NCBI GenBank assembly: GCA_016788705.1
Contig: JAEUSQ010000027.1
Coordinates: forward strand, 1,572 to 65,571
Origin: Bacteroidota Order II. bacterium
Lineage (GTDB): Bacteria > Bacteroidota > Rhodothermia > Rhodothermales > UBA2364
Direction: 5' to 3'
Length of the DNA: 64,000 nt
This document shows, in pieces, positions 941 through 49,805 of this stretch (positions within the stretch are counted from its first letter, which is position 1; each line of letters opens with the position of its first letter). The position numbers and the translations under genes are program-made. The notes under the pieces were generated by a model. It was not told the DNA's origin and did no database searches. It saw only the letters and a list, made by a program, of their open reading frames with translations.

Positions 941-966
941 ATTTCAATATTATGTTTTAAAATCCG

Positions 967-1002
967 GTTCATCTTTTAATCCTGCAAATTCTGATTCAGA
1001 CA
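967..1002. repeat. 36-nt repeat copy B (GTTCATCTTTTAATC...TGATTCAGACA)
   Basis: Partner of copy A. It lies between the hsdM stop and the GxxExxY start and contains the right terminal inverted repeat. Confidence 0.7.
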
Positions 1003-1003
1003 A

Positions 1004-3823: not shown

Positions 3824-4420
3824 TCTGAATTGTAGTTTTTAGTTGTTATAATTATCAAATCTTGTGTTTAATCGAATTACACAGAACTTTGAATATCCAA
3901 AAAGGTAACATTAATATTATGTTTTTTAAATATTATATTTTTACTCGCTTCATTTTGTTAAATTGAAGAACGGATGCCATTTTTTTTGTTTACCACGAAC
4001 AGCTCATAAGTTGTTGAAAATCAATGCCTTTAAAAACTTCTCTTTCATTGATTTTAGATGACTTCTGTTCGTCAAGTTTTTGTACGTAGATTTTATGTCC
4101 TCTGATTTCACAGAACTTAGTTATATCCGCTCTTTTCGTGTTTTTTGTCGTACTTTCCCGTAAAAAGGGCATCTAAGGGGCTACGGATTGCTTTATGGTT
4201 TGCTGGTTTGTGTGGGTGTAACGCAACGTTGTTTTGGTTCTGATCGTTCTTGGATCAGCAGCATCTCTCCTTTATGCACGATCAACTTAGTTTGTACTGT
4301 TAGTACCGTGATGAACAGTTAGGAGGTATAAAATAGGCTGGTGGTTGCAATTTAAGATTTTTTAGAATAGGTGTGCAATTTTTATAGCATTATTCAGAAA
4401 TACAAAGTTATGTAAGGACA

Positions 4421-4480: not shown

Positions 4481-7222
4481 TTAGGCGTTGGCTTGTTTTT
4501 GGCGAATGGTGGCCTGAGCCGCAGCAATTCGGGCGATGGGTACCCGGAAGGGGGAACAGCTCACATAATCCAAACCAGTTTTACAAGCAAAAGCCACCGA
4601 TGTTGGATCGCCGCCATGTTCACCACACACCCCCAGATGCAGGTTCGCATTTACCGAACGCCCTTTTTTAACCGCCATATCAATCAGTTGGCCCACCCCC
4701 TTTTCATCAATAGATTTAAACGGATCTTGGTCCACAAGCCCTTTTTTCAGGTAGATCGGTAAGAATTTATTGGCATCGTCGCGGGAAAATCCGAACGTCA
4801 TTTGCGTGAGGTCGTTCGTTCCAAAAGAGAAGAACTCAGCTTTTTGGGCAATGCTATCTGCCATCAGTGCTGCACGCGGCGTTTCGATCATTGTCCCCAC
4901 TTTATAGGGGATTTCTACGCCTTGTTCTGCAAAAACCTTGGCAGCGACCCGACGGATGACCTTTTCTTGCTCTGCAAATTCGCGGACGGTCACCACTAAC
5001 GGAACCATGATTTCGGGCAAGACTTTGATCCCTTTTGCATGTACGTTAAGAGCCGCCTCTATGATGGCACGGGTTTGCATTTCGGTAATTTCGGGATACG
5101 TGATGCCGAGTCGGCAACCACGATGACCCAGCATGGGGTTTTGTTCTTTCAGTTCTTCAATCCGATCCCGGATTTTATTCACCGAGACATGCATTTGTTT
5201 GGCCATCACCTGTTGACTGGCATCGTCATGTGGGAGGAATTCATGGAGTGGCGGATCTAAGAGACGGATGGTCACGGGTAGATCGTGCATAACCTCGAAT
5301 AAGCCCTCGAAATCGCCCCGTTGAATGGGCAGTAGTTTGTCTAAAGCCTTCCGGCGCCCGGCCTCGTCATCGGCCAAAATCATTTCCCTTACCGAAATAA
5401 TACGATCCCCTTCAAAGAACATGTGCTCGGTGCGGCAAAGGCCAATTCCTGTTGCTCCAAAATTTACGGCTTGCTTAGCTTCTTCGGGCGTATCCGCGTT
5501 GGTACGTACACCGAGTCTGGCATATTTTTCGGAGAGCGTCATCAATTCGCCAAAGTCGCCGCTAAGTTCGGCTTCGCGGGTTTCGACCCGCCCCTCATAG
5601 ACCTCTCCGGTGGTGCCATTAAGCGAAATCCACGTTCCTTCGCGATAGGTTTTGCCTTCTACGGTCATCTCGCGCGATTTATAATCTACATGGATAGCAC
5701 CTGCACCCGAAACACAGCATTTGCCCATTCCCCGTGCAACCACTGCCGCATGAGATGTCATACCGCCGCGTGCCGTCAGAATCCCTTTGGCGGCGTGCAT
5801 CCCGCGCAAGTCTTCGGGACTGGTTTCTACCCGCACCAGAATAACATCTTTACCACGTTTGGCCCATTCTTCCGCTTCATCTGCAAAGAACACGATTTGC
5901 CCGGTGGAGGCCCCTGGAGAAGCCGGTAACCCGCGTGCAATTACCTCGGCATTCTTAATCGCCTTTCCATCAAAAACGGGATGTAGCAATTCATCCAAGC
6001 GATTCGGATCCACCCGTTGGATAGCCGTTTTTTCATCTATCATTCCTTGGCGAAGCATATCCATAGCAATTTTCACCATTGCTGCGCCCGTCCGTTTGCC
6101 ATTTCGGGTTTGCAACATCCAAAGTTTACCGTCCTCGATGGTAAACTCTACGTCTTGCATATCGCTAAAATGGTTTTCCAGTGTCGTTTCTGCATGAATC
6201 AGCTGTGCAAACACCTCGGGCATAGCTTCTTCTAATGACGGATAATTGGTCTTCCGGTCTTCTTCGCTGATGCAGGCCAACTCGGCCCACCGCTGTGAGC
6301 CTATACGCGTCACTTGTTGGGGTGTGCGAATCCCCGCAACCACATCTTCACCTTGTGCATTAAATAAAAATTCGCCATTAAAAATGTCTTCACCTGTGGC
6401 CGCATCGCGGGTGAAAGCCACACCAGTTGCACTATTGCTGGAATGGTTACCATAGACCATTGCCTGCACATTGACCGCTGTTCCCCAACTTTCAGGAATG
6501 TCGTTCAAGGCACGATAAACTTGTGCCCGCTCGTTGTTCCAACTTTGGAATACTGCCATGATGGCCCCCCACAACTGCTCCCATGGATCGGTCGGGAAGT
6601 CTTTACCTAACCGGGCCAAGATCAGGGCTTTAAACCGACGGACCAATTCTTTTAAATCATCTGCCGAAAGGTCGGTATCTAATTTTACCCCTCGTTCATG
6701 TTTAACAAATTCAATGATCAACTCGAAAGGGTCTTCATCTTCTTTGCGTTCAGGCTTCAGACCCATCACCACATCGCCATACATTTGCACAAATCGGCGG
6801 TACGAGTCCCATGCAAACCGTGCATCGCCCGATTTCTCGATCAACCCTTGAACGGCGTCATCATTCAGTCCCAAATTCAGGATCGTATCCATCATACCGG
6901 GCATCGAAGCACGTGCTCCCGAACGCACAGAGAGCAATAACGGGTCCGAAGCGTCTCCAAATTTTTTGCCCATGATTTTTTCGACATATGCCACGCCTTT
7001 TTTTACTTCATCGGCAATGAGGTTGGTCACCGTTTCCCGACCATGCAAGGTATATTGGGTACAAGCCTCGGTGGTTACCGTGAAACCAGCCGGAACGGGG
7101 ATATTGAGCAAGCACATTTCGGCCATATTGGCCCCTTTTCCTCCCAAAAGGTTCTTCATGTCAGCACGGCCTTCAGTGCCTTCCGGCCCAAAGAGATACA
7201 CATATTTAGCAGAGACGTCCAT
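4481..7222 (-). CDS. ppdK: Pyruvate, phosphate dikinase
   Basis: 913 aa. N-terminal LLGGKGANMAEM, phosphohistidine loop GGMTSHAAVVARGMG and C-terminal PEP-utilizer motif GVCGEHGGDP. Confidence 0.97.
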   Translation of the reverse strand: MDVSAKYVYLFGPEGTEGRADMKNLLGGKGANMAEMCLLNIPVPAGFTVTTEACTQYTLHGRETVTNLIADEVKKGVAYVEKIMGKKFGDASDPLLLSVRSGARASMPGMMDTILNLGLNDDAVQGLIEKSGDARFAWDSYRRFVQMYGDVVMGLKPERKEDEDPFELIIEFVKHERGVKLDTDLSADDLKELVRRFKALILARLGKDFPTDPWEQLWGAIMAVFQSWNNERAQVYRALNDIPESWGTAVNVQAMVYGNHSSNSATGVAFTRDAATGEDIFNGEFLFNAQGEDVVAGIRTPQQVTRIGSQRWAELACISEEDRKTNYPSLEEAMPEVFAQLIHAETTLENHFSDMQDVEFTIEDGKLWMLQTRNGKRTGAAMVKIAMDMLRQGMIDEKTAIQRVDPNRLDELLHPVFDGKAIKNAEVIARGLPASPGASTGQIVFFADEAEEWAKRGKDVILVRVETSPEDLRGMHAAKGILTARGGMTSHAAVVARGMGKCCVSGAGAIHVDYKSREMTVEGKTYREGTWISLNGTTGEVYEGRVETREAELSGDFGELMTLSEKYARLGVRTNADTPEEAKQAVNFGATGIGLCRTEHMFFEGDRIISVREMILADDEAGRRKALDKLLPIQRGDFEGLFEVMHDLPVTIRLLDPPLHEFLPHDDASQQVMAKQMHVSVNKIRDRIEELKEQNPMLGHRGCRLGITYPEITEMQTRAIIEAALNVHAKGIKVLPEIMVPLVVTVREFAEQEKVIRRVAAKVFAEQGVEIPYKVGTMIETPRAALMADSIAQKAEFFSFGTNDLTQMTFGFSRDDANKFLPIYLKKGLVDQDPFKSIDEKGVGQLIDMAVKKGRSVNANLHLGVCGEHGGDPTSVAFACKTGLDYVSCSPFRVPIARIAAAQATIRQKQANA

Positions 7223-7494
7223 TTGAATGCGTTATTTTAATGGAAAAGAAAAGCCGCTCTAAACGGCCTACATAATTTGCAACAAGGATAACCCAGACCA
7301 GAAAAAACCTTTTGATGGTTTCGTTGTTTAGATGTGTAGGGAAAAAAAGCCGATCCATGTAGGAAAAAGACGTAGGGAGAATGTCGGCGCTGTACCTTGA
7401 TCTTTTGTTCACCAGTACGTAACTTGATTGTCTAAAGCGATTTACGCTAACAGATAAAGGCCATCGCCGACCAATTCGGCACTGTAGTTTTTTT

Positions 7495-8646
7495 ATGCCG
7501 TTTTCCGAACCCCTCCGTACCCGCCATTGGACCATTAGGGCTGCTGTTCATTTTCTTGCTTGGTCTTTGGTTTTGCTCATGCCCTTGCTATTTGGTCTTC
7601 CGATCCGCCTTCGAGACCCAGTCCTTTTCTGGAGTATTCAGTTTGCCCAAGTGGCCTTAATGATGTCTCTGTACTATGGCAATCTGGGGATTTTTCTGCC
7701 GAGGCTATTGGTGCATCGTAAAACCCTTTGGTACATTGTGGTAGTGATTCTGGTCATTTTGTCCATTAGTGAAGCCTATATGATGTTTAGGGACTGGGTC
7801 ACAAGTACATTTGGTTCGCCATTTGAGCAACCAGCCCCCCCTCCGGGGTCTAAACACAACCACCGCCCCAATAACTATTCTTCATCGTACCGCTATTTTT
7901 CCATTATCACCCAACTCGTTTTGGTGGTTTTTGTAGGACTGACCCAACACTTTATCCATGAGTGGCAACGCTCTAAACAAGAGACCGAAGCGAGGGAAAA
8001 GGAGCGTCTTGCGGCCGAACTCGCGTTTTTGCGTTCGCAAGTAAGCCCCCATTTTTTGTTTAATGTATTAAATGGTATGGTTTCGCTGGCCCGGAAAAAA
8101 TCTGACAAATTAGAACCGGCCCTCATGACCCTGTCTAGTCTGATACGTTATACACTCTACGAAGCACCCGAATCTCGTGTCCCCCTTGACCGTGAGATCA
8201 CCTATCTCAATAGTTATTTAGACCTACAGCGCCTACGTTTTGGCGATACCTTGCACTTACAAGTTGAAATTTCCGGAGACACCACACAAGCCACCATAGA
8301 ACCCCTCCTATTAATCCCGTTTGTTGAGAATGCTTTTAAGCACGGCACCAATGTGGCACATCCAGAGATTGACCTTAAGATTCAGGTAAGGGAAGAGGTC
8401 TTGCACTTTGAAGTCAGCAATACAATGCCAGAATCAGATGTCGGCCCCAAAGACCCCGCATCCGGCATAGGATTGACCAACATTCGCCGGAGATTGGACC
8501 TCTTATATCCACAAGCACATTCATTAGGCATTGTACCGGGTCTTAACCGATTTCAGGTAGTACTGACCGTAAACCTGCACCACCCTGAAAGAGACCTAGA
8601 ATCACCCAAAAGCTTGCCCCATGACCAGCTAAGACATTATGCCTGA
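7495..8646 (+). CDS. Membrane sensor histidine kinase, LytS/YehU type (His_kinase + HATPase_c)
   Basis: N-terminal TM helices, H-box LRSQVSPHFLFNVLN and ATPase boxes FVENAFKHG and GIGLTNIRRRL. Confidence 0.85.
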   Translation: MPFSEPLRTRHWTIRAAVHFLAWSLVLLMPLLFGLPIRLRDPVLFWSIQFAQVALMMSLYYGNLGIFLPRLLVHRKTLWYIVVVILVILSISEAYMMFRDWVTSTFGSPFEQPAPPPGSKHNHRPNNYSSSYRYFSIITQLVLVVFVGLTQHFIHEWQRSKQETEAREKERLAAELAFLRSQVSPHFLFNVLNGMVSLARKKSDKLEPALMTLSSLIRYTLYEAPESRVPLDREITYLNSYLDLQRLRFGDTLHLQVEISGDTTQATIEPLLLIPFVENAFKHGTNVAHPEIDLKIQVREEVLHFEVSNTMPESDVGPKDPASGIGLTNIRRRLDLLYPQAHSLGIVPGLNRFQVVLTVNLHHPERDLESPKSLPHDQLRHYA

Positions 8647-20174: not shown

Positions 20175-20936
20175 TTACCAACTATCCCCAGCGCCACCTC
20201 CGCCAAAGTCTCCCCCACCGAAGCCAAAGTCGGAGCTGCCGCCGCTACTCCACCCAGATGACGACGAGGAGGAAGAATCCCAGCCACTTCCGAAGATAAT
20301 AGGCCCACCACCATATCCACCACCAAAACCATCTCCACCCCTATTTCGGCGCGAAGCCTTGCTCACCACTACAAAAAAGAGAATGATAAGGATCAAAATA
20401 AACAGGAAGAAAATCAACCCAGCGAAATCGTCGTCATCAGAGGATGTGCCATCAGATTGATAGGCGCCACTGGCTGCCGATATTAAGGCATCCACCGCAG
20501 TATTCGTTCCTTGGAAATACTGTTCCTGCCGAAAAGCAGGCACCATGTATTCCCGAACAATTTGTTTGGCGGTAAAGTCGGTGATATTGGCCTCCAAGCC
20601 ACGTCCTACAGCAATATAAGCCTTCCGATCTCCTTTAGAAATCAGCACAATCACGCCGTTGTCCTTGTTTTTTGTTCCAACGCCCCACTCATGACCCAAT
20701 TCGGTGGCATATTGGTTCGCATCCATGCCTTCTAAAGAAGGTATGGTCACTACGACAAACTGATTCGAGGTTGAGTCTTCGTAGGCATTTAGTTTTTGTC
20801 GCAAGATTTCGCGCTCGTTACCCGAAAACAAGTTGGCCGCGTCGGTGACGGGACCAGTGGACTTAAGGTTGATTTTTTGACCGTAAACCGGAATGCCCAA
20901 CAACAGCAGGCACAACAAACGCAAAGCGTAACGCAT
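20175..20936 (-). CDS. TPM-domain (TLP18.3/Psb32/MOLO-1) protein with TM helix and Gly/Ser-rich tail
   Basis: Signal peptide, VTDAANLFSGNEREILRQKLNAYEDSTSNQFVVVTIPSL, a TM segment and a GGGYGGG...SSSSSS tail. Downstream of lemA. Confidence 0.8.
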   Translation of the reverse strand: MRYALRLLCLLLLGIPVYGQKINLKSTGPVTDAANLFSGNEREILRQKLNAYEDSTSNQFVVVTIPSLEGMDANQYATELGHEWGVGTKNKDNGVIVLISKGDRKAYIAVGRGLEANITDFTAKQIVREYMVPAFRQEQYFQGTNTAVDALISAASGAYQSDGTSSDDDDFAGLIFFLFILILIILFFVVVSKASRRNRGGDGFGGGYGGGPIIFGSGWDSSSSSSSGWSSGGSSDFGFGGGDFGGGGAGDSW

Positions 20937-21002
20937 GGTCGAAAGAGGCTAAATGGAAAGGGAGGGGCACAAAAACAGGCCCCACCCTTGGAACAAAAGA
21001 AG

Positions 21003-21587
21003 TTAGAACTGGACTTTAGGTGCATTTTGGGCACTGGCATCTGCCTGGAAGGGCTGCTTGGCCGAGAAACCCATCATACCTGCAAACATGACCAACGGAA
21101 AACTCCGAACCTTTACGTTGTAGTTTTGAACCACTTCGTTGTAACGATTCCGCTCCGTATTAATCCGGTTTTCTGTTCCTTCTAATTGACTTTGAAGCCC
21201 TACAAAAGCCTCTGTCGCCCGTAGTTGCGGATAGTTTTCTGCAACCATCATCAAGCGCCCTAAGCCTTGGCTCAGCGAAGCCTGCGCTTGTTGGAATTGC
21301 TGCATTTTCTGCGGATCATTCAAGTCTTCTGCTTTTAACTGGATAGAAGTGGCTTTCGCCCGTGCTTCCACCACTTGCGTCAGGGTTTGTTGTTCAAAAT
21401 TGGCTGCACCTTTCACAGTGCTGACCAAGTTCGGGACAAGATCTGCACGACGTTGATATGCCGATTGTACGTTGGCCCAAGCGGTTTGGACTTCGGAATC
21501 GGTTGTTACTAGGCCGTTATACTGAGAGCAGCCCCACATACCAAAGAGCGCCACCACAACAATTGCAAGAATAGCACCACCTTTCAT
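21003..21587 (-). CDS. lemA: LemA family protein
   Basis: N-terminal TM helix and the LemA signature region AWANVQSAYQRRADLVPNLV. Confidence 0.9.
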   Translation of the reverse strand: MKGGAILAIVVVALFGMWGCSQYNGLVTTDSEVQTAWANVQSAYQRRADLVPNLVSTVKGAANFEQQTLTQVVEARAKATSIQLKAEDLNDPQKMQQFQQAQASLSQGLGRLMMVAENYPQLRATEAFVGLQSQLEGTENRINTERNRYNEVVQNYNVKVRSFPLVMFAGMMGFSAKQPFQADASAQNAPKVQF

Positions 21588-21802
21588 AGTTTTATTAAAT
21601 TTTAAATAGGTGAAGGGATTGCATTACCGGATTGATAGAGCCGGTTGCTTTATGTGCCTTAATATACGCTTTAGGCTTGTGAGGTTGCGAATTTTTCGTC
21701 TTCAGGATTAAAGAAAAGGTGAATCCGGTTGAATGGCTGATATTACAGACCCTTTTTGATAGAGACATTATTCAATCTATTAGATTTTTGCTTCGTGGGT
21801 TT

Positions 21803-23359
21803 TTATTGCCATCGTTCCGAAACCGTATCTAATACCGACTTGGTTTTCTCAAAAAAATGCACGGCCCGTTCGGGTGTACGACCAATAGAGACCACACCCA
21901 ATTTTCCAAACTCGGAAAGCGCTCCTATCAAATGAAAGACCACCCCTTCTTGGTCGGTACTTTCATAATGCAGGTTCTCACACATCGCCAGATCAATCAG
22001 ATCGGGAGGAGTGATGCCTTTATAATGCGGGGACTTCAGGTTATCGGTGGCAAAATAAAAACGATTTTGTCCATTGAGGGTCTCATACAATCCGGAGTGT
22101 GGATTATACCGCCCATCAGTCAAAAACTGGAGCATCAGATAAGGATGGGTTGTCCCCCCTTTTCGGAGATTAATTTCGATAGCGAGATGTTTCCAGCAAT
22201 TGCCCTGTTTTACCGAAATAAAGTCCACCGCAAAGCGCCCCATCACGTTTTTGGACTGTAGTACTTTTCCTATGGCCAAGCCATTTCGGGCAATTTCGCG
22301 GCTATATTCGGGATCGGCAGGAAATTTTGCACCCAGAAAAATTTGTCCGGTTGCCGCATCCAAGACCTGATCGTGTGTAGAAACCACCTCCACCTCACCA
22401 AGCGGATTAATTCGACATTGTACAGAAGGAGAAACCTTCACCTCTCCTTCAACAAAGACTTCTACAATCCCGCCCAGTTCAATAATTTTCGCCATATAAG
22501 CCGCATAATCTAAATGTGGGGCCACTATTTTTAGGTGTTTGGGCAGGTAATGCTTCAGCCATTGTTTTAATGAAGCATCGGAAGGTGCTTGTTCTAAATG
22601 GACAATGGCATTGCCTTCTCCCGAGAAGCCTTCGTTCATTTTAACCACCATTTTGCGGGTTTCGGGCAATTGGCGTTTAATTTCAACAATGGCCTCTACC
22701 ACATCCAGTTCGCTTCTTAGGTTTTCAAAACCCGGCGGCATGTCCACACCTGCTTCACGAAAAGCCATACGACTCCCACTTTTCGATCCCCAAAACATAA
22801 GTTCCGGATCGCAGCCATACAGTGGAACCCCCAAACGTACTGACAAGGTTCGTTCAAGAGGTGTTACATTAAAAGCAGCAATGTGTGCGGCGTGACCATG
22901 TGGGATGCATTGTCGGATGCGCTCCATCAAAAGGGGCCGTTCCAAAATTTTCTGGGTCAAAGACTTGGCAGAGGCGTCGTAACAACTTAATAAGGTCAAA
23001 CGTTGGCGGGCATGCCATCCGGTAATTCCGGGTAATAAATGCAGGTAATAATCCACAATGACCGGATCAAGCGGGGTACTGGTTAGATAGATGATATGCG
23101 TTCGAGGCATACGCAACAGCATGAGCAGAGAAAGCATCCGTTCTTCGTAATGGATTTCTCCAGGTATGGTTCCGAGCATATCTTGGTCTAATGTGGTACT
23201 GGGCAGGACAATAATGGTTTTAGGCGCCAATGGATCAGGAAATGCATCTCGGTATTGTGTGACAAACGTATTTTGTAGCCGTAAGAATGCGGCTACTTCT
23301 TCGGTTGAAGCAGGGATAGGAAATTGAGGCGGCTCAATATGGGGAGAGAGTGCGTACAT
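21803..23359 (-). CDS. ATP-grasp-like carboxylate-amine/peptide ligase (PGM1-like, tentative)
   Basis: 518 aa. The central region GSKSGSRMAFREAGVDMPPG...KMVVKMNEGFSGEGNAIV resembles an ATP-grasp core. The assignment is from motif memory only. Confidence 0.5.
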   Translation of the reverse strand: MYALSPHIEPPQFPIPASTEEVAAFLRLQNTFVTQYRDAFPDPLAPKTIIVLPSTTLDQDMLGTIPGEIHYEERMLSLLMLLRMPRTHIIYLTSTPLDPVIVDYYLHLLPGITGWHARQRLTLLSCYDASAKSLTQKILERPLLMERIRQCIPHGHAAHIAAFNVTPLERTLSVRLGVPLYGCDPELMFWGSKSGSRMAFREAGVDMPPGFENLRSELDVVEAIVEIKRQLPETRKMVVKMNEGFSGEGNAIVHLEQAPSDASLKQWLKHYLPKHLKIVAPHLDYAAYMAKIIELGGIVEVFVEGEVKVSPSVQCRINPLGEVEVVSTHDQVLDAATGQIFLGAKFPADPEYSREIARNGLAIGKVLQSKNVMGRFAVDFISVKQGNCWKHLAIEINLRKGGTTHPYLMLQFLTDGRYNPHSGLYETLNGQNRFYFATDNLKSPHYKGITPPDLIDLAMCENLHYESTDQEGVVFHLIGALSEFGKLGVVSIGRTPERAVHFFEKTKSVLDTVSERWQ

Positions 23360-35543: not shown

Positions 35544-36134
35544 TCCATACAAGGATTTTAAATATAAAAACACTTGTTTAATTATAAGAAATTATTTTTT
35601 AAAACCTTTAGCAATCGCTCCTGACGGTCCCAGAATGCTGTTATTTCGCCATGAGCGGTTTTGACTTTAGAACAGACAAGCAAGGAAGCGCAACAAGCTG
35701 AAGCGCAGATAATAAAACAGACACTTTAGACTTTACACCATGCTCCCCCTCCGAAGACATACAAATCTGCACCCCATCTACACCTTCCACAAATTATTTC
35801 CCATAGAACCACATAACATATTTCATTTTCCTTCTATGGGTTTATCCCCTGTTTCACATTTTTGAACACTTTCCCAAAATATTTACCTCCTGAAAAAGTT
35901 GCACCCTTACTTTAGAAAGTTTTATATTGTAATGGCTAAATATGGTTAAACTTCCACTCGCTGATAAGGAAAGGTGTGTATTGTAAAATGATGTTGCGTT
36001 ACACCTACATAATCAGGGAAACAGAATATCGAGAAACCCTTCCAAGTTTTTTTCACTAAAAAATACAGCGAAAAGGATAAGACAACTAAGTTAATTGTTA
36101 TGTTTGAAAACAAACCATTTAAACAGCAAAACAG

Positions 36135-37814
36135 ATGAAAAAATCTATTATAGTTCTATTTTTAAATTCAATATTCGGACAAATTTTTGCCCAACCTACC
36201 AATCAAGATTATTTAATACAGGGTGATATGTATTACAATGATGGCAACTATGATATGGCAATTAATTCTTATGTAGTACATAAACTATCAAATTCAGAGG
36301 ACAAAATTGTAAACATTAATATTGGACTATGTTACTTAAGAAAGATTCAAAAAGAAACACCTTTAACTTCTATTATTGGCATTCCTGCATTGACAACCAA
36401 TGCCGAAAAAGCAATATCTTATTTCAAATATTACCTTGAGTCGCAGCCACCAATTTCTATAAGTTCAGATAAAAATGTATATACTACTTACAAACTAATA
36501 GCAGAAACTTACGCAACAATGCTCAACTGGGAAAAAACATTAGAATATGCAAGTATTATGTACAATATCAATCCGAATTATAAATTCACCAATGACTATG
36601 GCGTTAAGGAATTTTACAACGATGCAAATAATGCACTAGCAAATTGGTACTGCGACCAAGCCTATTTATACTCTGAAAAAGAAAATGAAATAGAAGTAAA
36701 AAAACATTACGACAAAGCATTACAGTACTTTAAAGAACCGCTAAGTGAACATTCCCTTTTTTATAGAGGCTTTGCTAACTCAAAGTTAGGTAATTCAGAT
36801 AAAGCTAAAATTGATTTGGGAAATGTTATCAAATTATATCCCAATAGTTCTTATGCTTTACTTGCTAAACAGGAATTAGAAACAATAAATATCAATGCTG
36901 CATTACAATCTGATCCTTTAAATAATAATTTATTAACCTTTGAAAGGCCATCTTACAAAGGTGAAATTCTTTACTATAGCGGCGAGATAAAAAATGGAAA
37001 AGCAAATGGTAAAGGTGAGGCGACAACAAGTTTTAACCATTTCTACAAAGGTGACTTTAAAGACAATGAATATCACGGAAAAGGCTTGCATAAATGGACT
37101 AATGGAGATACTTATGAAGGATATTGGCTAAATGGACAAAGGACTGGAAAAGGTGTTTACAAATGGGCAAATAATACGGCCTTAATCTATGAAGGGGATT
37201 TTGTAAATGGACAAAGGACTGGAAAAGGAAAAATGAAGTGGACAACTGGTGAAATGTATGACGGAGAGTGGTTAAATGACAAGCAAACAAAAGGGTTCGG
37301 GGTTTATAAATATGGCAATGACACTTATACTGGCGACTTATTAAATAATAACCGACACGGAAAAGGGACTTATAAATGGGCCAATGGTGATATTTATATT
37401 GGTGATTGGCAAAATGGCTATAGAACAGGTTATGGGAAATACACTTACATGAATGGAAAAATTGAGGAAGGATATTTTGAAAATAATATACTTAAAACAG
37501 TAACAAATACAACACAAAACACTACTTCTGCGTTTTCATTTAATGAAGACACAGAAGTAGAAAAAGCTAAACTAGCAACGAAAGAAAAAAGGTATAATAA
37601 TGCTATTGAAACGTACACTTTTTTAATTCAAAAAACGGGTCAAGCATATTTGTATTTTGAAAGGGGGAAAATATATTCGACCACAAAAGAGTATCAAAAA
37701 GCAAAAAATGATTTTCATTCTGCAATCAATATCTGGAGTACAATACAAACAGAAAAATACAGCTGGCTTAAAGAAGATGCCCAACAAGAATTAAGAAAAA
37801 TTGAAAACAAATAA
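36135..37814 (+). CDS. Secreted TPR - MORN-repeat - TPR protein
   Basis: Signal peptide. About 7 MORN units of the Y-x-G-(D/E)-x(5-6)-G-x-G type (e.g. YEGYWLNGQRTGKGVYKW) flanked by TPR-like helices. AT-rich gene. Confidence 0.8.
   Translation: MKKSIIVLFLNSIFGQIFAQPTNQDYLIQGDMYYNDGNYDMAINSYVVHKLSNSEDKIVNINIGLCYLRKIQKETPLTSIIGIPALTTNAEKAISYFKYYLESQPPISISSDKNVYTTYKLIAETYATMLNWEKTLEYASIMYNINPNYKFTNDYGVKEFYNDANNALANWYCDQAYLYSEKENEIEVKKHYDKALQYFKEPLSEHSLFYRGFANSKLGNSDKAKIDLGNVIKLYPNSSYALLAKQELETININAALQSDPLNNNLLTFERPSYKGEILYYSGEIKNGKANGKGEATTSFNHFYKGDFKDNEYHGKGLHKWTNGDTYEGYWLNGQRTGKGVYKWANNTALIYEGDFVNGQRTGKGKMKWTTGEMYDGEWLNDKQTKGFGVYKYGNDTYTGDLLNNNRHGKGTYKWANGDIYIGDWQNGYRTGYGKYTYMNGKIEEGYFENNILKTVTNTTQNTTSAFSFNEDTEVEKAKLATKEKRYNNAIETYTFLIQKTGQAYLYFERGKIYSTTKEYQKAKNDFHSAINIWSTIQTEKYSWLKEDAQQELRKIENK
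36954..37484 (+). repeat. MORN repeat array (coding, about 7 units of ~23 aa)
   Basis: Recurrent YxGxxxxGxxxGxG spacing across residues ~274-450. Confidence 0.7.
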
Positions 37815-37944
37815 AAACAGCAAGTAATATCAGTTTACTTAGCTAATTACTTCGGTCGTGTGGCAAAATGGCGGGTTCAGTGCTAAACAGTGTTTTTTTA
37901 ATTGAACTTAAATTCGTCTTTATAAACAATAAGACCTCATCAAT

Positions 37945-38922
37945 AGACATTATGTCAGTTTATTTTAGGGTATTGAAGTGGTGTAATTGAGGTTATGAGA
38001 TTGTGTAAATGCTGCCCCAGTAGCGAAAGCGTTTTTTACAAAATTGTTCTTTCTTAATCGGCATCCATCTTTGAGAATACGCAAACGTTTTATGCTTCCA
38101 ATGGCGTGTTCGACATGCGCTCGTGTACGAAATATTTCTCGATTGAGCGCTTTTTGTTCGCTGTTCAATCCTTGACGACAAGGTTTTTTGATTGATTGAT
38201 GAATCCTGCCTTCATCGGGCACCAAACCTTGATAAGCCGTATCTTGGCATACCATAAATCCTGATGGAATCGTGTAATAGGTATCTGCTACCTTTTTATC
38301 ATGTATTTTATTCGGAACCGAAGGAAAAAAACAATACATAACAGAGTACAGTGGGTAATGACTGCGTTTTTCAATGTCTGTTTTTTTTACCACTACACAT
38401 AACTTCTTGTTTTTCTCGACCTTGTGGACGTAGTATTTTGCGCGTCGTACAGTTATTAAGCAAGGTTTTATCTTCTACTGTGGTTAAGACTTATTGTAAG
38501 GCTTCATCCGTTCTAAAAGGCATTGTTTGTGCAAGAACCAACACCTTTTTCAGAGCTATATGTAGGCCATGAGTAAGTTGTGAGCATTGTTTTTGGGTAA
38601 GACGAAACAAATCGAATCGGTATGTGCTCCTTGTAGAGGATTGAGTTTGAGGTAAAACAAGATAAAGACAGGTCGCTCTTGAATCGTTGGCGAAGGACTG
38701 TTGGAGTAACGGACAAATTTTCGATAACTATTTTGTCCTTTTCCATTCAGATCAAACGTTTTGAAGTGGGCTTGATGTGCTTGTTCAAAAAAAGGAAACA
38801 ACGCATTAACTTGTTAGAGCGTGTGCCCTGTCATGGCTAAGAAGCGACCGGGCATTGTTGACCAGTGATCGTATTTCATAGCTTCGCGCATATACTTATA
38901 AAGTTAGCGTAACATAATGTCT
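37945..38922. mobile_element. Decayed ~1-kb IS (IS5-superfamily, HTH_Tnp_4/DDE_Tnp_4 Harbinger-like) with intact 11-bp TIRs and 3-bp AAT target duplication
   Basis: AGACATTATGT at 37945-37955 is the reverse complement of ACATAATGTCT at 38912-38922. AAT occurs at 37942-37944 and again at 38923-38925. Confidence 0.75.
37965..38879 (-). pseudogene. Transposase pseudogene of the IS above (in-frame stop plus frameshifts)
   Basis: The N-terminus MKYDHWSTMPGRFLAMTGHTL* is followed by ...ERPVFILFYLKLNPLQ (HTH_Tnp_4-like). The C-terminal DDE part is QDTAYQG...KKP...LNSEQKALNREIFRTRAHVEHAIGSIKRLRIL. The pieces lie in different frames. Confidence 0.7.
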
Positions 38923-44473: not shown

Positions 44474-46396
44474 TTATGGCATTAAATAGCCCAATACTCC
44501 AAGACGGCCTTTCAACTCGGAAACATGCGCATGCTCAACCATTATATGACGGTTTTCTGCGCGTAAAATAAGCTTAGACAATACCGGATCCGTCAGGAAC
44601 AACTGCAACAAATCCGGGTCATCATCCAATTTAAAAACCTGATAAGTCGCAACAGCCCGTATGGGACGGATTCTTGTTCTTATTTTCACAATAAATTCCA
44701 ACCAATTTATTGGCCATTCGGTGATCGGCACCTCCACTACCCGCTGAAAGTCTTTTATCCGCTCATTTGCCTCCTCGACCGTCGTACAGTTCTTCAGAAA
44801 GCTCCGAAAATCTGCCCGAAACCGACACGTAGCCACTTGTTCGGCAAATCTACTTAAGTTCGCCTCTTTAATGCTGTCGGGTTTGGAAATCGTGATCATC
44901 AAAAAATCCGGATCTAGTTCTATATTGGTTTTTCCTGATTCAACAATTTCCTTTTTATACACATATGTGGGTGCTTGACCAAAGAAATAAGCGCCTAAAT
45001 CAGTTAATCGTACATATTGAATACCATCAAAAAGAGTAAGATACTCCTCATCTGGAACACGAATTTCATCATTAATGGGGTCCGTATAGGCAATTTCAAC
45101 CAAACCCAAGGAAGCCATAATAGAAAAGAATGATCTCACAAATGGTAGTGCCAAAACCTCAATTATTTGTGAAAAAGATATTTCTTTTTTTATGAAATTA
45201 ATCTTATCATTCTCTCTAATGGCTGAATCCAGATAAAGATCTTTAACTGAAAAAGATTGAATATAACTAAAAAAAACATCGTTCATGTGATACATCCATT
45301 GGGCAATATGTAGCGGAGAATACCATACTTTTTTTTCAAGTTTACGCATTAACTCCTGCAACTCCTGCAAGACGGGTTGTAAGTTTTCATCAAAAGAAAA
45401 ATTGGTATTAGGTTTATAAATATACGAAAAAAATATCTTCTTTGTTATATGGTTTGGCATCATAAACAAAGCATCTAAAATATGTTTCAATATCACTAAA
45501 GGTTGATCATAATGAATTTTTATACCTAAATTAATAAATAAATTCGCCAATAAATTCGTCATAACGAATGCACGAGGTCCTTTATTTTCTTTATATAGTT
45601 CTTGAATTTTTGCTACTTTTTTCAACTCTTTAAGCGTAGATATCGAAATTTTATTGGTTGCAGTTTTCTGGATAGTTACTTCCCTAAAATAAGTCACCAA
45701 AGTATTCACATGTAAAGGTGCATGACCGTCAGATTCTATATCATAGCGTTGCCAATCTGCTAATATTTCTGACTGTTCAGCATATAGCAACTTAGAGGGT
45801 AAAATACTTTTGAACCACTCCCTTAATATCTTTTTTATTTCTTTACTAAGATCCACATCATAAGCATTGGTATATGAAGAATAACCATATCTACTACTAT
45901 TACGGAATATTTCATATGCTCTTTCTACATCTCGATAATAATTTTCTTGGTTGGTTTGATAAAAAATGATGCCAAAATTTTCTTTTAAAGAACGTGCCGA
46001 TAACGAACCAAAGCATGCAACCTGAAAGAAGATTGTTTTCACTTCTTCGGGAAGTGTATTATAAAAACGTAAAAAAGATGTCCGGTTTCCCCAAATAGTA
46101 GCTATAGCAGTGGCCAATGCTTTTTTAGAAGGTTGCTTAATAGGTTTTAACCAAACATTTGGAATTTTTATATCCACTTTTCCGGCATCAGAAACAAGAT
46201 AAGGCAGGATATAGTCATCGTAGAAAATTTTTAATGACTCTATACCTTTATCCCTTAGCAATGCAGATTGAATAATAGCTTCTGGAGATTTACCCATAAC
46301 TTCTTCTTCGGATTGAATAATACCTTGTGAAGATCTACCCAGGACTTTTTCTTCGATAACGCGCCTTGGGCGTCCACGTCTTAGCTGGTGTGCCAT
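44474..46396 (-). CDS. Unknown 640-aa protein with N-terminal AT-hook-like RRGRPRR. The C-terminal region faintly resembles the XPB N-terminal / Helicase_C_3-type domain.
   Basis: Uninterrupted ORF, 11 nt after the SNF2 stop and 14 nt before the nuclease start. No catalytic motif recognised. There is a strong internal composition shift. Confidence 0.6.
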   Translation of the reverse strand: MAHQLRRGRPRRVIEEKVLGRSSQGIIQSEEEVMGKSPEAIIQSALLRDKGIESLKIFYDDYILPYLVSDAGKVDIKIPNVWLKPIKQPSKKALATAIATIWGNRTSFLRFYNTLPEEVKTIFFQVACFGSLSARSLKENFGIIFYQTNQENYYRDVERAYEIFRNSSRYGYSSYTNAYDVDLSKEIKKILREWFKSILPSKLLYAEQSEILADWQRYDIESDGHAPLHVNTLVTYFREVTIQKTATNKISISTLKELKKVAKIQELYKENKGPRAFVMTNLLANLFINLGIKIHYDQPLVILKHILDALFMMPNHITKKIFFSYIYKPNTNFSFDENLQPVLQELQELMRKLEKKVWYSPLHIAQWMYHMNDVFFSYIQSFSVKDLYLDSAIRENDKINFIKKEISFSQIIEVLALPFVRSFFSIMASLGLVEIAYTDPINDEIRVPDEEYLTLFDGIQYVRLTDLGAYFFGQAPTYVYKKEIVESGKTNIELDPDFLMITISKPDSIKEANLSRFAEQVATCRFRADFRSFLKNCTTVEEANERIKDFQRVVEVPITEWPINWLEFIVKIRTRIRPIRAVATYQVFKLDDDPDLLQLFLTDPVLSKLILRAENRHIMVEHAHVSELKGRLGVLGYLMP

Positions 46397-46407: not shown

Positions 46408-49245
46408 TTAAGTCCCAAAAATATACAAAATATCATCCTCCGAGAGTGACTTAAGCATCCCTTCGTCTGAACTAATAATGGCTTCTACTAAGGCTTGTTT
46501 CTGTAGTTGAAGTTGAACAATTTTTTCCTCAATGCTTCCTTTGGTAACAAGTTTATGGCTAAATACGGTTTTATCCTGGCCAATTCGGTGTGTCCGGTCT
46601 ATTGCCTGTTGCTCGGCAGCGGTATTCCACCACGGATCAAAAATGAACACATGGTCGGCGGCAGTTAGGTTAAGACCCGTCCCCCCTGTTTTTAGGGTCA
46701 TAACAAAAACCTTGGTTTCGGGATCTTCCTGAAACCGTTGCACCAGTTCTTGTCGGTTGGAAGTTGCTCCCGTCATGCTCACATAGGGAATCCCCGCTTG
46801 TTCCAAATCGTTCCCAATGGCTTCCACACCCGCCAAATAATGGGTAAATATCAGCGACTTGTGCCCATTCAATGCCGCATCTGTCAATTGCTCCATCAAA
46901 ACACTGCGCTTGGGCGACCGGATCCGGCCATCGCTTTTCGCTTCGGGAATACTTGCAATCTGACGAAGTTCATTCAATGCCTGAAAAATAAAGAACTGTG
47001 TTTTGGCGATGCCGTCTTTGGCTACCTGATTTTGGATGGTATCCACATAGTACCGACGTCGGCGCTCATAGAAAGCCCGTTGGACGTCGTTCATTTCCAC
47101 CCAAAGTGTCTGATCTACACGGTCTGGTAGTTCCTTGGCCACTTCGCGTTTTAATCGTCGGAGGATGAAGGGATATATTTTTCTCTTTAGTTCGTGTGCA
47201 GCCTCTTCGTCCTGATTTTTTTGGATGGGAGTGGCGTAACGCTCAGAAAAATCTTGCTCACTTCGTAGCATAGCAGGGTTTAAAAAACGAAACAAAGCGT
47301 ACAGTTCGCTCAAATTATTTTCGATGGGTGTACCAGAAAGGGCGAGACGCACGTCGGCCTTGATCATCAAGGCAGCTTTAGTCGCCTGTGTCTGTAAGTT
47401 TTTAATGTTCTGAGACTCGTCAAGCACCACATAATGAAACTTTCGGTCCTTAAACGCCTCAATATCACTCCGTAACATGCCATAGGTTGTCAGGATTAAC
47501 TGATGCTTGAAGGCTTCATCTAAATCTCGATTTTGGCGGTAATAGGTATAAAATCGTAGGCTGGGGTTAAACTTTGTTAGTTCAGCCTCCCAGTTGAACA
47601 ACAAGCTAGTGGGCATTACTACCAGCGAAGGCTTTTGTTCTGCCGGATAAACCGTACTCAACAGGGCAATGGCCTGAGCCGTTTTTCCAAGCCCCATATC
47701 ATCTGCCAGACACCCTCCTAAGCCATGCTCCCGGAGGTAATCCATCCACCGTACCCCATATTCTTGATACGGACGTAAATGCCCCTGAAACTGATTGAGG
47801 GACATATCCCGATCTTGGACATGGTTAAATCCTTTATATACCGACCATACCTCTGGTAATGATGTCGCTCCTTCTAATTGCTGCTCGATCATCGAAGCCG
47901 CAATGGGTAAATCGAAAAACGAAATCCGAGCACCTTCTTGGTTTACATCCGAAAAAATCCGCTCTAATTTGCGAATATAAGCCTCATTAATCAGCGCTTG
48001 TGAACCATCGCCCAACTGTACGTATCCTGCTTGGCGCACCTCCGTCAAAACATCAAACAACGAGAATCGTTCCCCTTCCAACGTAAGAGAAACATCTCCA
48101 GCGAGGTAGTCAATCCCACTATCTAATCGCATATCTAAATTGGGCGTGACAAAACGGATTCGATAAGACCTTAGCTTTTCTGCACCAAATACCGGATATT
48201 TTTGTACCAAGCTGTAAAGATGTTTATAAACAAATTCATGGGCCAACCCTCTTTCAATCAGCAACGTATCCCCTTCTCGAATAAACCCGTAATCTTGTTT
48301 CCCTGCTTTGCTTAACGTCCGTTGGAGTTTTCCAAGCAACCCTTCCAAGACCTGAAATACCTCCCCAAGCGGCTCCGTCTGAATTGGGCGCACCACAATC
48401 CGGCTTTCAAGGTCATCAATTTTGACGGAAACACTCACCAAAGAGGCTACAGCAGATGGTAGTAGTTCCCCTGGAATAGCTGAAGACACACGCAGATAGA
48501 GGGCATCAAGCGCATCTACTTTATCAAAAAAAAGGCCTACCCGAACTTTTAGCAATTTATCCCAAACCGTTTCATATTGCTGCCAAACCAATGAAATGTG
48601 TTGCGACAAAGAGAACAGAATACATAAGAACGGATGAATGTCTTTGGTCTCTAACGTGGCCTCCAGATGTTGAAGCTCATTCCACGTCGGCCCGAGCGGT
48701 GGTATTTCGTAAAGGCTATTCCTTACCATAACCCAGCCATCCGCCACCATCAAAGGTGAAGAGAGTACTTTTTCTCCTTCCCGAAGTTGGAGTTTCGCCT
48801 TCCAAACACCCATTTCATCAGATTCTAACAGGTGCATTTCTAATTTTGCCTTTTCCGAAGCATATTTGACCGCTGCCCCAGTTGCGGTTATAAAAAACGC
48901 AGAATGTCGCAAGTATTCCAGAACGAGGGGTACTTCATCTATCACATAAGAAGTCTCCACTTCTGTTCCTTTAGCAGTACTCCAAATTTCACCCCAATCA
49001 TTTCCGGACGGCTTCTTGCCGAACGCATAGGACAATGTTTTGAGCACTTGTCGTGTCTCCCCTTCATATCCCAGATAATCTGGTAAGAAAGAAACAGGCT
49101 TTTTATCCGGCCCCAGGATGATTAGCCGTCCCCCATGCTCCGGAGAGACATCCAGACGAAACCACAAAGGCGAAAGTAATAACTTACCCGAATGTAGGGT
49201 GCGGTTGGAAACTTTTAGCCTTTGAAATAAATCTTCAATACCCAT
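46408..49245 (-). CDS. SNF2-family DNA-dependent ATPase/translocase with a ~480-aa N-terminal extension (bacterial SNF2-associated type)
   Basis: Motif I LADDMGLGKTAQ, motif II VLDESQNIKN, motif III LSGTPIENNLSELYALFRFLNP and the helicase-C block FDPWWNTAAEQQAIDRTHRIGQ. Confidence 0.92.
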   Translation of the reverse strand: MGIEDLFQRLKVSNRTLHSGKLLLSPLWFRLDVSPEHGGRLIILGPDKKPVSFLPDYLGYEGETRQVLKTLSYAFGKKPSGNDWGEIWSTAKGTEVETSYVIDEVPLVLEYLRHSAFFITATGAAVKYASEKAKLEMHLLESDEMGVWKAKLQLREGEKVLSSPLMVADGWVMVRNSLYEIPPLGPTWNELQHLEATLETKDIHPFLCILFSLSQHISLVWQQYETVWDKLLKVRVGLFFDKVDALDALYLRVSSAIPGELLPSAVASLVSVSVKIDDLESRIVVRPIQTEPLGEVFQVLEGLLGKLQRTLSKAGKQDYGFIREGDTLLIERGLAHEFVYKHLYSLVQKYPVFGAEKLRSYRIRFVTPNLDMRLDSGIDYLAGDVSLTLEGERFSLFDVLTEVRQAGYVQLGDGSQALINEAYIRKLERIFSDVNQEGARISFFDLPIAASMIEQQLEGATSLPEVWSVYKGFNHVQDRDMSLNQFQGHLRPYQEYGVRWMDYLREHGLGGCLADDMGLGKTAQAIALLSTVYPAEQKPSLVVMPTSLLFNWEAELTKFNPSLRFYTYYRQNRDLDEAFKHQLILTTYGMLRSDIEAFKDRKFHYVVLDESQNIKNLQTQATKAALMIKADVRLALSGTPIENNLSELYALFRFLNPAMLRSEQDFSERYATPIQKNQDEEAAHELKRKIYPFILRRLKREVAKELPDRVDQTLWVEMNDVQRAFYERRRRYYVDTIQNQVAKDGIAKTQFFIFQALNELRQIASIPEAKSDGRIRSPKRSVLMEQLTDAALNGHKSLIFTHYLAGVEAIGNDLEQAGIPYVSMTGATSNRQELVQRFQEDPETKVFVMTLKTGGTGLNLTAADHVFIFDPWWNTAAEQQAIDRTHRIGQDKTVFSHKLVTKGSIEEKIVQLQLQKQALVEAIISSDEGMLKSLSEDDILYIFGT

Positions 49246-49354
49246 TTAGACAAAGATTAATACAATTAAGCACTTATTTATACAGCATTTACACCAATTA
49301 AAATATTTTTTAAACTTATAAAATGTTTTTTCTATTTAAGCAGGCTGTGTTAAC

Positions 49355-49468
49355 ATAGTTTATGTTAAGCATTTTACAAAATGGATTCCCGTTTTCGCGA
49401 GCATGACGTACTCGGCACTTAAAAGCCCGTCATGCCCAACTTGATTCGACATCCATAACATAAACTAT
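49355..49468. repeat. MITE/REP-like 114-bp element bounded by 13-bp inverted repeats, in the upstream region of the SNF2 operon
   Basis: ATAGTTTATGTTA at 49355-49367 is the reverse complement of TAACATAAACTAT at 49456-49468. The interior holds a GC-rich palindrome, GCATGACG...CGTCATGC. Confidence 0.4.
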
Positions 49469-49521
49469 TCAAAAAAACCTACTTATTGGCAAATCAATCC
49501 TCTGTTAGGCAGGATAGCGCT

Positions 49522-49551
49522 ATAAAAAAAGGCAATCAAATAGATTGCCTT
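49522..49551 (-). terminator. Rho-independent terminator downstream of rpsU
   Basis: AAGGCAATC pairs with GATTGCCTT over 9 bp with a 5-nt loop. A 7-nt U-run follows on the minus-strand transcript. Confidence 0.75.
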
Positions 49552-49604
49552 AGGTAAAATAACAAAATTCTTTTGACCAAATCAGTACATGCAAAACCGT
49601 GATA

Positions 49605-49805
49605 CTAAAATTCGAATTCTTCGCGACTGTTTTTTCGGGCTACTCGGTCAGACTTTTGACGGGCTAAACGATTGGTTTCCGAAGGCTTTGTATAGGCAAG
49701 TGTTTCACGATAGATTCGAAGCACTTTGCTACGGTTGATGGTGCGTTTAAAGCGGCGAAGGGCACGGTCTATAGACTCGTTTTCCCGAATTTTGATCCCT
49801 ACCAA
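49605..49805 (-). CDS. rpsU: 30S ribosomal protein bS21
   Basis: (M)VGIKIRENESIDRALRRFKRTINRSKVL matches the S21 N-terminal signature. The start codon appears to be TTG. Confidence 0.9.
   Translation of the reverse strand: MVGIKIRENESIDRALRRFKRTINRSKVLRIYRETLAYTKPSETNRLARQKSDRVARKNSREEFEF

Follow-up and report, generated by a model that had tools for sequence, protein, structure and literature searches.

The window analysed here is a 64,000-nucleotide stretch of contig JAEUSQ010000027.1 (assembly GCA_016788705.1) from Bacteroidota Order II. bacterium. It carries a gene of 640 codons, gene X, that raises two questions: what does its product do, and why is most of the gene so much richer in A+T than the genes on either side? 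The protein gave no match in Pfam (at E<=0.1), NCBIfam or PADLOC. A previous reading of the nucleotide sequence by itself, referred to below as the original prediction, had described a compositional mosaic with an AT-hook-like N-terminus, a conserved docking end and an exchangeable central module. From the homology, synteny, predicted fold matches, base composition and substitution rates observed here, gene X probably encodes a bacterial p52/Tfb2-like docking and regulatory subunit of the SNF2 translocase encoded directly upstream. The coordinates of all features are given in Table 1.

Predicted structure of the gene X protein

The AlphaFold 2 (AF2) model of the gene X protein, built from an 80-sequence alignment, had a predicted local distance difference test score (pLDDT) of 87.5 and a predicted template modelling score (pTM) of 0.83. 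When the model was compared with the PDB using Foldseek, the first 17 matches were all chains of the TFIIH subunit p52/GTF2H4/Tfb2 from independent human and yeast structures (8ebt_D, 6nmi_D, 7zs9_2 and 7o4i_2 included), with E-values of 1.4e-6 to 3.6e-3 and probabilities of 0.75-1.0. These alignments extended over about 470-630 columns, the best over about 570 columns at a probability of 1.0. XPB chains came next in the list (9pd3_A, 8ebu_A and 7lbm_W; 172-175 columns, probability 1.0, E 0.011-0.046). A Foldseek search of the BFVD viral structures, used as a background control, gave nothing significant (best E 0.09, probability below 0.1).

Greber et al. 2019 (PMC6422496) divide p52 into three parts: winged-helix domains at the N-terminus, then a clutch (residues 306-399), and finally a p8-binding C-terminal module. 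The clutch shares the fold of the XPB N-terminal domain (NTD), with which it pairs as a pseudo-symmetric dimer, the published fold having 4 helices and 5 strands (PMC6422496). The predicted model of the gene X protein has the same order of parts, a winged-helix array followed by a clutch-type domain and a C-terminal module, and its clutch-type domain (residues ~485-580) comprises 4 strands and 4 helices.

Some likeness was also detected by sequence profiles. The PF13625 model, which we take to represent the XPB/Ssl2 N-terminal domain, matched 3 of the 80 family members weakly (best E 0.002), and PF18458 (XPB_DRD) gave one weak match, at the C-terminal end of member P0030 (E 0.058; 13.7 bits against a cut-off of 26). 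The window protein reached the gathering threshold of neither model. The original prediction had noted a loose resemblance of the C-terminal ~170 residues to the N-terminal domain of XPB-type helicases and their partners, a resemblance that finds some support in the long p52/Tfb2 alignments, the shorter XPB alignments and these weak profile matches. On the predicted model, the gene X protein appears to resemble p52 from end to end and to finish in an XPB-NTD/DRD-like part. Such a protein would fold and work like p52 without being a member of its Pfam families.

Distribution and conservation of the family

A word-indexed homologue search returned 7-8 relatives of the gene X protein, and a profile made from seven sequences was then run exhaustively against 1.84 billion representatives. 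This search gave at least 1,595 homologous clusters from many phyla, 766 of them at E<=1e-30; none of the models in Pfam, NCBIfam and PADLOC describes this family. Nearly all clusters consist of proteins of ~600 amino acids (aa) that align over profile positions ~30-622, indicating that the central region is homologous throughout the family; a minority of ~860-aa members bear an N-terminal extension. In the 80-sequence alignment the invariant or near-invariant columns were clustered in residues 418-637, and no conserved catalytic-looking motif was found among them. For the search of related loci a 7-sequence alignment was used, with the core pattern [FY]Dx[LI][QKE]YVRLT.

Family-wide identity was ~15-20% in residues 41-410 and ~35% in residues 411-640, and judging from the alignments this gradient along the protein is a general property of the family. 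The conserved docking end of the original prediction fits the higher identity of the C-terminal third. Its exchangeable or horizontally replaced central module is not supported, since the central block is collinear in every homologue and was modelled confidently from the family alignment. In the alignment of homologues, which the original prediction proposed as a check, residues ~30-480 are fast-evolving in sequence, collinear, and conserved in fold. A conserved central domain of known function had been named as the finding that would speak against an exchangeable centre; a conserved domain is present, and its function is suggested by the fold match.

Gene X was 65-66% and 41-42% identical to its two syntenic orthologues, compared with 87-98% and 67-90% for the neighbouring genes, and its last 40 residues were 100% identical to those of orthologue P0002. 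The ratio of nonsynonymous to synonymous substitution rates (dN/dS) was 0.27 in gene X against 0.015-0.10 in neighbouring genes. By region, this ratio was 0.28 for residues 41-470 and 0.135 for residues 471-640, while the synonymous rate (dS) between the two closest lineages was 0.85 in the central part and 0.79 in the C-terminal part.

The SNF2 partner and the gene neighbourhood

Gene X is the second of four minus-strand genes arranged head to tail (SNF2, gene X, DnaQ-GIY-YIG and a class IV aminotransferase), which are separated by spacers of 11, 14 and 21 nt. The same pairing was seen in a sample of 62 loci from the GTDB species set: in ~50 of them a SNF2 gene with a homologous N-terminal 480 aa lay directly upstream of X on the same strand, and the SNF2-X junctions were of 0-20 nt or overlapping. 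These loci came from Bacteroidota, Desulfobacterota, Fusobacteriota, Firmicutes, Spirochaetota, Omnitrophota, SAR324 and other phyla. Most loci lacking an upstream SNF2 gene were on contigs that end there. No other recurrent neighbour, a small conserved gene included, was found across the 62 loci. One X member in RefSeq is annotated as 'hypothetical protein' and adjoins a 'DEAD/DEAH box helicase'.

Three loci of the sample, L017, L037 and L042 (X at ~5300-7700), have ~5 kb of upstream sequence in which no SNF2 gene was found by BLASTP. They could contain masked sequence, a different motor, or orphan X genes.

The motor of the window SNF2 protein gave its best PADLOC scores with the defence families DpdE and ZorD, and its NCBIfam scores were far below the cut-offs of these families (227.5 against 1500 bits for ZorD, NF041790; 57 against 500 bits for DpdE). 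The N-terminal domain of SNF2 was modelled by AF2 with a pLDDT of 80, and its sole significant Foldseek match in the PDB was the ZorD apo structure 8qy7 (E 3.6e-6, probability 1.0, 489 columns). PMC11946911 describes full-length ZorD as autoinhibited and its N-terminal domain, which is packed against the SNF2 domain in a toroidal arrangement, as autoinhibitory.

Synteny around gene X is shared by three genomes, in the order sigma70, VWA, 2-oxoglutarate dehydrogenase, outer membrane protein (OMP), TMEM220, S21, SNF2, gene X, DnaQ/GIY-YIG and aminotransferase. The DnaQ-GIY-YIG protein scored 592.8 bits with NCBIfam NF005906, above the cut-off of 495. Its gene follows X in L001-L005, L009 and the outgroup L071 and is missing from the other loci; this position after the SNF2-X pair suggests a DNA-repair or DNA-processing role in Rhodothermia.

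Additions to the basic architecture were observed in both partners. The long X forms (~800-870 aa; P0020, P0025, P0027, P0030, P0036 and P0037) contain HEAT_2 repeats, several of them with Cys-rich motifs in the N-terminal extension. The SNF2 orthologue P0181 (959 aa) starts with METSQPKRKRGRPPRDR, an AT-hook-like tail carried by the motor and not by X. Accessory nucleic-acid- or protein-binding tails thus seem, from these sequences, to be added freely to either partner. A 585-aa hypothetical protein encoded by the conjugative plasmid pSX1_LC6 of Shewanella sp. LC6 (L075, 5769-7526) resembles the core of X only (residues 428-522, 35% identity), and the ~2.6 kb upstream of it is unannotated. 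This protein may represent a remoter branch of the family, carried by a mobile element.

Table 1. Features of the gene X region of the window, with their coordinates and the basis of each assignment
Feature	Coordinates	Strand	Basis or remarks
DnaQ (DEDDh) exonuclease and GIY-YIG/UvrC-middle fusion, 562 aa	42771..44459	(-)	Pfam RNase_T, GIY-YIG; starts 14 nt after the gene X stop codon
Gene X, 640 aa, ATG start	44474..46396	(-)	Open reading frame (ORF); 'hypothetical protein' in NCBI records; family unannotated
Gene X residues ~583-640, small end module (beta-alpha-beta-beta-alpha), placed like the XPB DRD or p52 C-terminal domain	44477..44650	(-)	Predicted model
Gene X residues ~485-580, alpha/beta domain, XPB-NTD/p52 'clutch'-like, assigned by position	44657..44944	(-)	Predicted model
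AT-rich block, codons ~13-505, 32% G+C, GC3 ~0.25	44882..46360	(-)	Maximum-likelihood three-segment fit
Gene X residues ~30-480, helical and winged-helix-like array, equivalent in position to the p52 N-terminal winged-helix region	44957..46309	(-)	Predicted model
Most conserved core, residues 408-471 (P418, G431, V-E, A436-Y437, D457, Y-V-R-L-T, L467-G468)	44984..45175	(-)	Invariant and near-invariant columns
45-nt tandem duplication, 2 copies, 84% identical, encoding EEKVLGRSSQGIIQS / EEEVMGKSPEAIIQS	46266..46310 / 46311..46355	(-)	Repeat search
AT-hook-like motif RRGRPRR, residues 6-12	46361..46381	(-)	Translation; tail predicted disordered
N-terminal peptide of the gene X protein, MAHQLRRGRPRRVIEE			
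SNF2 ATPase, 945 aa	46408..49245	(-)	Pfam SNF2-rel_dom and Helicase_C; stop codon 11 nt upstream of the gene X start
SNF2 N-terminal domain, residues 1-478	47812..49245	(-)	SNF2 motor is residues 479-945
AT-rich spacer between rpsU (S21) and SNF2, G+C 33-39%	49246..49607	(-)	Possible promoter region
S21 (rpsU) orthologue	49608-49805		

Comparison with TFIIH, XPB and Zorya

The resemblance to p52/Tfb2 lies in the whole-length structural match, the best obtained with the predicted model, in the order of parts, and in the genetic tie of a non-enzymatic-looking protein to a dsDNA-translocating superfamily 2 (SF2) ATPase. The gene X protein differs from p52/Tfb2 in being ~180 aa longer, in having no sequence-level Pfam match, and in having as partner a SNF2-type ATPase and not XPB, a partner in which no XPB-NTD-like domain for a pseudo-symmetric clutch was detected. 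It is bacterial and belongs to an operon-like pair, and no equivalents of p8, p34 or p62 were found near the gene. In XPB/Ssl2 the NTD (PF13625, Helicase_C_3) and then the DRD (PF18458) are fused in cis at the N-terminus of the motor, whereas in gene X such domains would form the C-terminus of a separate protein encoded after another motor.

Several results weigh against the p52-like interpretation. The Foldseek TM-scores were low (0.16-0.27), because the domain arrangement differs or because the protein is a flexible multi-domain one. The domain-by-domain correspondence with p52 was drawn from position and secondary structure in the model. The window protein gave no match to the Pfam Tfb2, Tfb2_C or XPB families even at E<=5, the Tfb2 and Tfb2_C models (PF03849 and PF18307, for p52/Tfb2, GTF2H4) matched 0 of the 80 family members at that threshold, and a profile search of PDB sequences was empty. 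No XPB-NTD-like domain was found in SNF2 by Foldseek, which gave ZorD only, and hhalign detected no similarity between the SNF2 N-terminal domain and the X family (probability 0.3); docking of X therefore cannot match the XPB-p52 mode. Finally, the linkage to a nuclease is confined to one clade, the Rhodothermia-type genomes.

The ZorD-like features of SNF2 suggest another explanation, in which the SNF2-X pair would be an anti-phage or anti-plasmid defence module with a ZorD-like effector joined by a sensor or adaptor; X would then owe its rapid evolution and unusual composition to an arms race. The motor scores best against DpdE and ZorD, the N-terminal domain of SNF2 matches ZorD alone in the PDB, the dN/dS of X is 3-18 times that of its neighbours, and the variable N-terminal two-thirds of X with its appendages recall sensor domains. 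As in Zorya type I, a motor is paired with an adjacent ~560-640-aa protein of unknown chemistry, which in Zorya binds dsDNA. However, X itself has no PADLOC match, SNF2 is far under the ZorD and DpdE cut-offs, and a dN/dS of 0.28 denotes purifying and not positive selection at this resolution. Compared with Zorya type I, the gene order is reversed, X lying downstream of the motor, and neither ZorA or ZorB genes nor a defence-island context was found: the window neighbours are S21, TMEM220, OMP, 2-oxoglutarate dehydrogenase, the nuclease and the aminotransferase, and no ZorA/B-like or other recurrent partner gene occurs across the 62 loci. The core-metabolic synteny is stable in three species, and elsewhere the flanks are also metabolic; in ten diverse loci they encode ordinary or metabolic proteins (aminopeptidase P, dehydrogenases, COX3, quinolinate phosphoribosyltransferase, HAD hydrolase, DeoR, redoxins and OEP). 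In addition, X is almost absent from plasmids and absent from phages, as tblastn found it in 3 of 72,556 plasmid records, two of which measure 524 kb and 2.1 Mb, and in 0 of 50,697 phage records. A defence function is thus unlikely, and a housekeeping role in DNA transactions is better supported than membership of a defence island. The identification of X with ZorC (EH-signature) was rejected, there being no PADLOC match to ZorC and no ZorC among the Foldseek matches.

Base composition of gene X

The compositional mosaic described by the original prediction is real. Its two hand counts of G+C (guanine plus cytosine), 29/60 at 44701-44760 and 15/60 at 45181-45240, were exact, and the sliding G+C plot that it proposed as a check (300-nt windows) fell from ~45% to 27-35% across ~44950-46300, the mean of the window being 45.2%. 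The AT-rich block itself was found where predicted, except that its end lies at residue ~505 and not 465, ~40 codons further 3'. In the three-segment fit G+C was 0.45 over the last ~135 codons and 0.64 over the first 12, which are Arg/Gly/Pro codons; the description of both ends as backbone-like therefore holds for the 3' end, and at the 5' end for these 12 codons only.

Codons 41-470 contained 31.6% G+C against 43.1% in codons 471-640 (Fisher p = 5e-6). The G+C content at the first, second and third codon positions (GC1/2/3) was 0.40/0.29/0.25 in the AT block against 0.56/0.36/0.45 in the adjacent SNF2 gene, and GC3 of the genes flanking gene X was 0.45-0.49. Since all three codon positions are depressed, the AT shift resides in the DNA and goes beyond amino-acid content alone. 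The block is no assembly artefact, as orthologues from independent assemblies show the same compositional pattern. It is unusual for a syntenic core-like gene, yet it is not unique in this genome, where other AT-rich islands of the window have a G+C content equal to or lower than that of the gene X block.

The AT-rich 5' three-quarters are shared by the syntenic orthologues of three lineages (the window, L001-3/L009 and L004-5), in which gene X has a G+C content of 0.34-0.36 against 0.45 for SNF2, a difference of -10 to -11.5 points. The nearest outgroup, P0015 of locus L071, shows 31% overall identity, rising to 48% in the C-terminal part, and aligns collinearly from end to end; its gene lies in the same SNF2-X-DnaQ/GIY-YIG arrangement, is uniform at 51% G+C and has no AT block. 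The residues F, Y, M, I, N and K (FYMINK) make up 0.38-0.40 of the block against 0.24 in the outgroup. In 44 other loci X has a median G+C ~3 points below that of SNF2, the difference being negative in 41 of 47 loci overall, so the Rhodothermia trio exaggerates a general tendency of X to a lower G+C than SNF2.

GC3 is ~0.25 in all three lineages despite a dS of ~0.85 between the two closest, which speaks for a local equilibrium that is being maintained and against an import that has yet to ameliorate. We propose that the weakly constrained 5' three-quarters would have settled at an AT-rich equilibrium in three related genomes, altering synonymous sites as well as amino acids, and that the more constrained 3' quarter would have kept near the backbone G+C. 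The mosaic would then be a secondary, clade-confined feature reflecting equilibrium in place, with relaxed constraint as the supposed cause of the drift. One observation counts against this explanation: the compositional step at codon ~505-520 misses the conservation boundary at ~410 and, in two of the three species, is rather abrupt; relaxed constraint in its simple form would not lead one to expect this.

In L001 (10001-11920) the C-terminal quarter of X also has a low GC3, ~0.3 (0.25-0.40), compared with 0.42-0.62 in the window and L004. In this lineage the AT bias seems to be extending further along the gene.

The exchangeable module of the original prediction, in which the central ~430-490 codons would have been replaced by recombination with a low-G+C homologue between conserved docking ends, is improbable, and the same holds for a single ancient segmental replacement in the common ancestor. 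Replacement would explain why the G+C/GC3 step near codon 505-520 is fairly sharp in the window and L004 and falls within the conserved region, not at its boundary, and why the outgroup gene in the same three-gene arrangement is uniform in composition. It also agrees with the identity of residues 251-410, which is 0.10 to the outgroup against 0.15 to random family members, and with the accessory nature of the other AT-rich islands of the window (a type I restriction-modification (RM) methylase, and a MORN/TPR protein missing in L001). Against these points, the block is at the same place in three species whose SNF2 genes have diverged to 72% identity, which leaves room for a single ancient event and not for ongoing exchange, and the persistence of GC3 ~0.25 despite a dS of at least 0.85 shows no amelioration, so that a local maintaining force is needed anyway. 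Horizontal replacement is further opposed by the similar dS of the block and the C-terminal part and by the lack of a donor-like relative, as no representative stood out among 121 (maximum identity 0.22). With 15-20% identity family-wide, the N-terminal and middle parts are almost saturated, and the missing outgroup affinity is therefore uninformative; the low GC3 of the C-terminal part in L001 means that AT decay occurs in place, and X is usually a few points below SNF2 across the 47 loci. A recent transfer agrees no better with the data, the block not being confined to one genome and having no donor-like relative.

Two further analyses of the block were discarded. When the GC-to-AT and AT-to-GC changes in the block were polarised by parsimony, taking L004 for the outgroup, the latter prevailed 3:1, a ratio that a saturated, 75% AT outgroup produces through chance matching. 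A segment-wise best-match analysis for mosaicism, in which P0015 was prominent for the C-terminal part only, was rejected because P0015 is collinear throughout and the regions ahead of that part are close to saturation across the family, so that the pattern reflects a rate gradient.

It is very unlikely that the AT-richness is itself selected, either because rare codons ending in A or T would slow the translation of X compared with SNF2 on a shared transcript, or because the AT tract would be a binding site, serving autoregulation, for nucleoid proteins or for the AT-hook of X itself: GC3 of 0.25 is indeed maintained in three lineages between genes of GC3 0.45-0.49, with a boundary that ignores protein conservation and in a gene that encodes an AT-hook-type motif, but L004 has the block without the AT-hook, the family outside the clade lacks such a block, and GC1, GC2 and the amino-acid make-up shift too, as undirected mutation pressure would yield.

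N-terminal motif and repeat

The AT-hook-type core reported by the original prediction is present in the basic N-terminal tail of the protein, of which residues 2-26 have a pLDDT below 50 in the AF2 model and are the sole part predicted to be disordered. The motif RRGRPRR is a single copy of the R-G-R-P core with Arg on both sides, as expected of an AT-hook, and the AT-hook Pfam model (PF02178, which we take to be the HMGA-type AT-hook) gave no match in the gene X protein. It is identical in P0002 and missing in P0003, the third syntenic orthologue, and in 152 others, so that 2 of 155 family proteins carry it. In the L004 orthologue, which lacks the AT-hook, a stop codon lies four codons upstream of the ATG. 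Over residues 1-40 dN/dS was 0.93, nearly neutral, while RRGRPRR stays unchanged in P0002, which hints at selection on the motif. Judged by its distribution, the putative AT-hook is a recent lineage-specific addition of two species and lies outside the mechanism of the family.

The short internal duplication of the original prediction is genuine and larger than noted, being a 45-nt tandem repeat. In P0002 the second copy alone is recognisable.

AT-rich islands and other regions

An AT-rich island at window positions 1-2602 (30-37% G+C) encodes a type I RM methylase with HsdM_N and N6_Mtase domains (1004-2602, minus strand) and a PD-(D/E)XK_3 protein (461-940, minus strand), and is probably an accessory RM locus cut by the window edge. 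The lowest G+C of the window (24-29%) was found at 2800-4000, where an ORF of 244 aa (3089-3823, minus strand; ~25% G+C) matches no Pfam family. A further AT-rich island at 35600-38000 (29-35% G+C) contains an ORF for a MORN-repeat/TPR protein (36135-37814, plus strand); in L001 a peptidase S9 gene occupies the corresponding place, which marks the region as variable. An Rfam scan of the whole window gave no family at gathering score.

In the Rhodothermia metagenome-assembled genome (MAG) of L004, ~9 kb downstream of X (20513-21812), a bAvd-like gene is followed by a reverse transcriptase gene (RVT_1), with a kinase/FGE-sulfatase-domain protein nearby. The arrangement, which is not in the window, resembles a diversity-generating retroelement.

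Proposed function

In TFIIH, p52 recruits XPB via the clutch, and p52/p8 stimulate its ATPase (PMC6422496, PMC13024598). By analogy, a physical interaction between X and SNF2, regulation of the SNF2 ATPase and a role in DNA repair may be proposed. X would dock on the SNF2 motor, most likely via its conserved C-terminal third, recruit the motor, tune its ATPase, and so gate or target ATP-driven translocation of SNF2 on double-stranded DNA; it might also relieve a ZorD-type N-terminal autoinhibition of SNF2. The winged-helix array and the appendages (the AT-hook in the window and P0002, the HEAT_2 and Cys-rich extensions in ~860-aa members) may contact DNA or partners.

In Rhodothermia the adjacent UvrC/Cho-type nuclease suggests that incision could be coupled to translocation. 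This arrangement, one tight run of genes for a translocase, its putative accessory protein and a nuclease of the GIY-YIG/UvrC type with DnaQ, is reminiscent of repair modules that combine a motor and a nuclease, such as the archaeal XPB-Bax1 helicase-nuclease pair, and of bacterial UvrC/Cho. It differs from these systems in that the nuclease is linked in one clade only and X is not Bax1-like.

According to a 2026 review (PMC13024598), there is no TFIIH-like assembly in archaea, and what XPB does in archaea and bacteria is elusive. In the literature that we searched, no account of a bacterial p52/Tfb2-like family, a bacterial Helicase_C_3 family or this SNF2-partner pair came up, and p52/Tfb2 is treated as a eukaryotic TFIIH subunit. 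What would be new here is the combination of a translocase and a p52-type scaffold, with a different motor, in bacteria. On a bolder reading, which is less likely than not, the pair might be a widespread bacterial two-gene machine made of a SNF2 dsDNA translocase and a p52/Tfb2-like scaffold with an XPB-NTD/DRD-like end. Recruitment and gating of translocases by a p52-type clutch would in that case be older than eukaryotes and independent of XPB; the form found in Rhodothermia might then be a UvrABC-independent, TFIIH-like pathway of damage opening and incision, and the family or a relative a possible prokaryotic source of TFIIH p52.

The AT-rich mosaic is a modest curiosity, an intragenic segment that has long been at an AT-rich equilibrium at a fixed locus, and it advises caution against reading such mosaics as module swaps. 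The p52-like subunit proposed here has wider bearings. A bacterial family with a predicted p52 fold bears on the origin of the parts of TFIIH, and the SNF2-X pair offers a testable handle on accessory scaffolds that gate dsDNA translocases. X would be a candidate for the concept of a partner or regulator of ZorD-like motors, and the pair bears on the roles of the many orphan SNF2 ATPases of bacteria.

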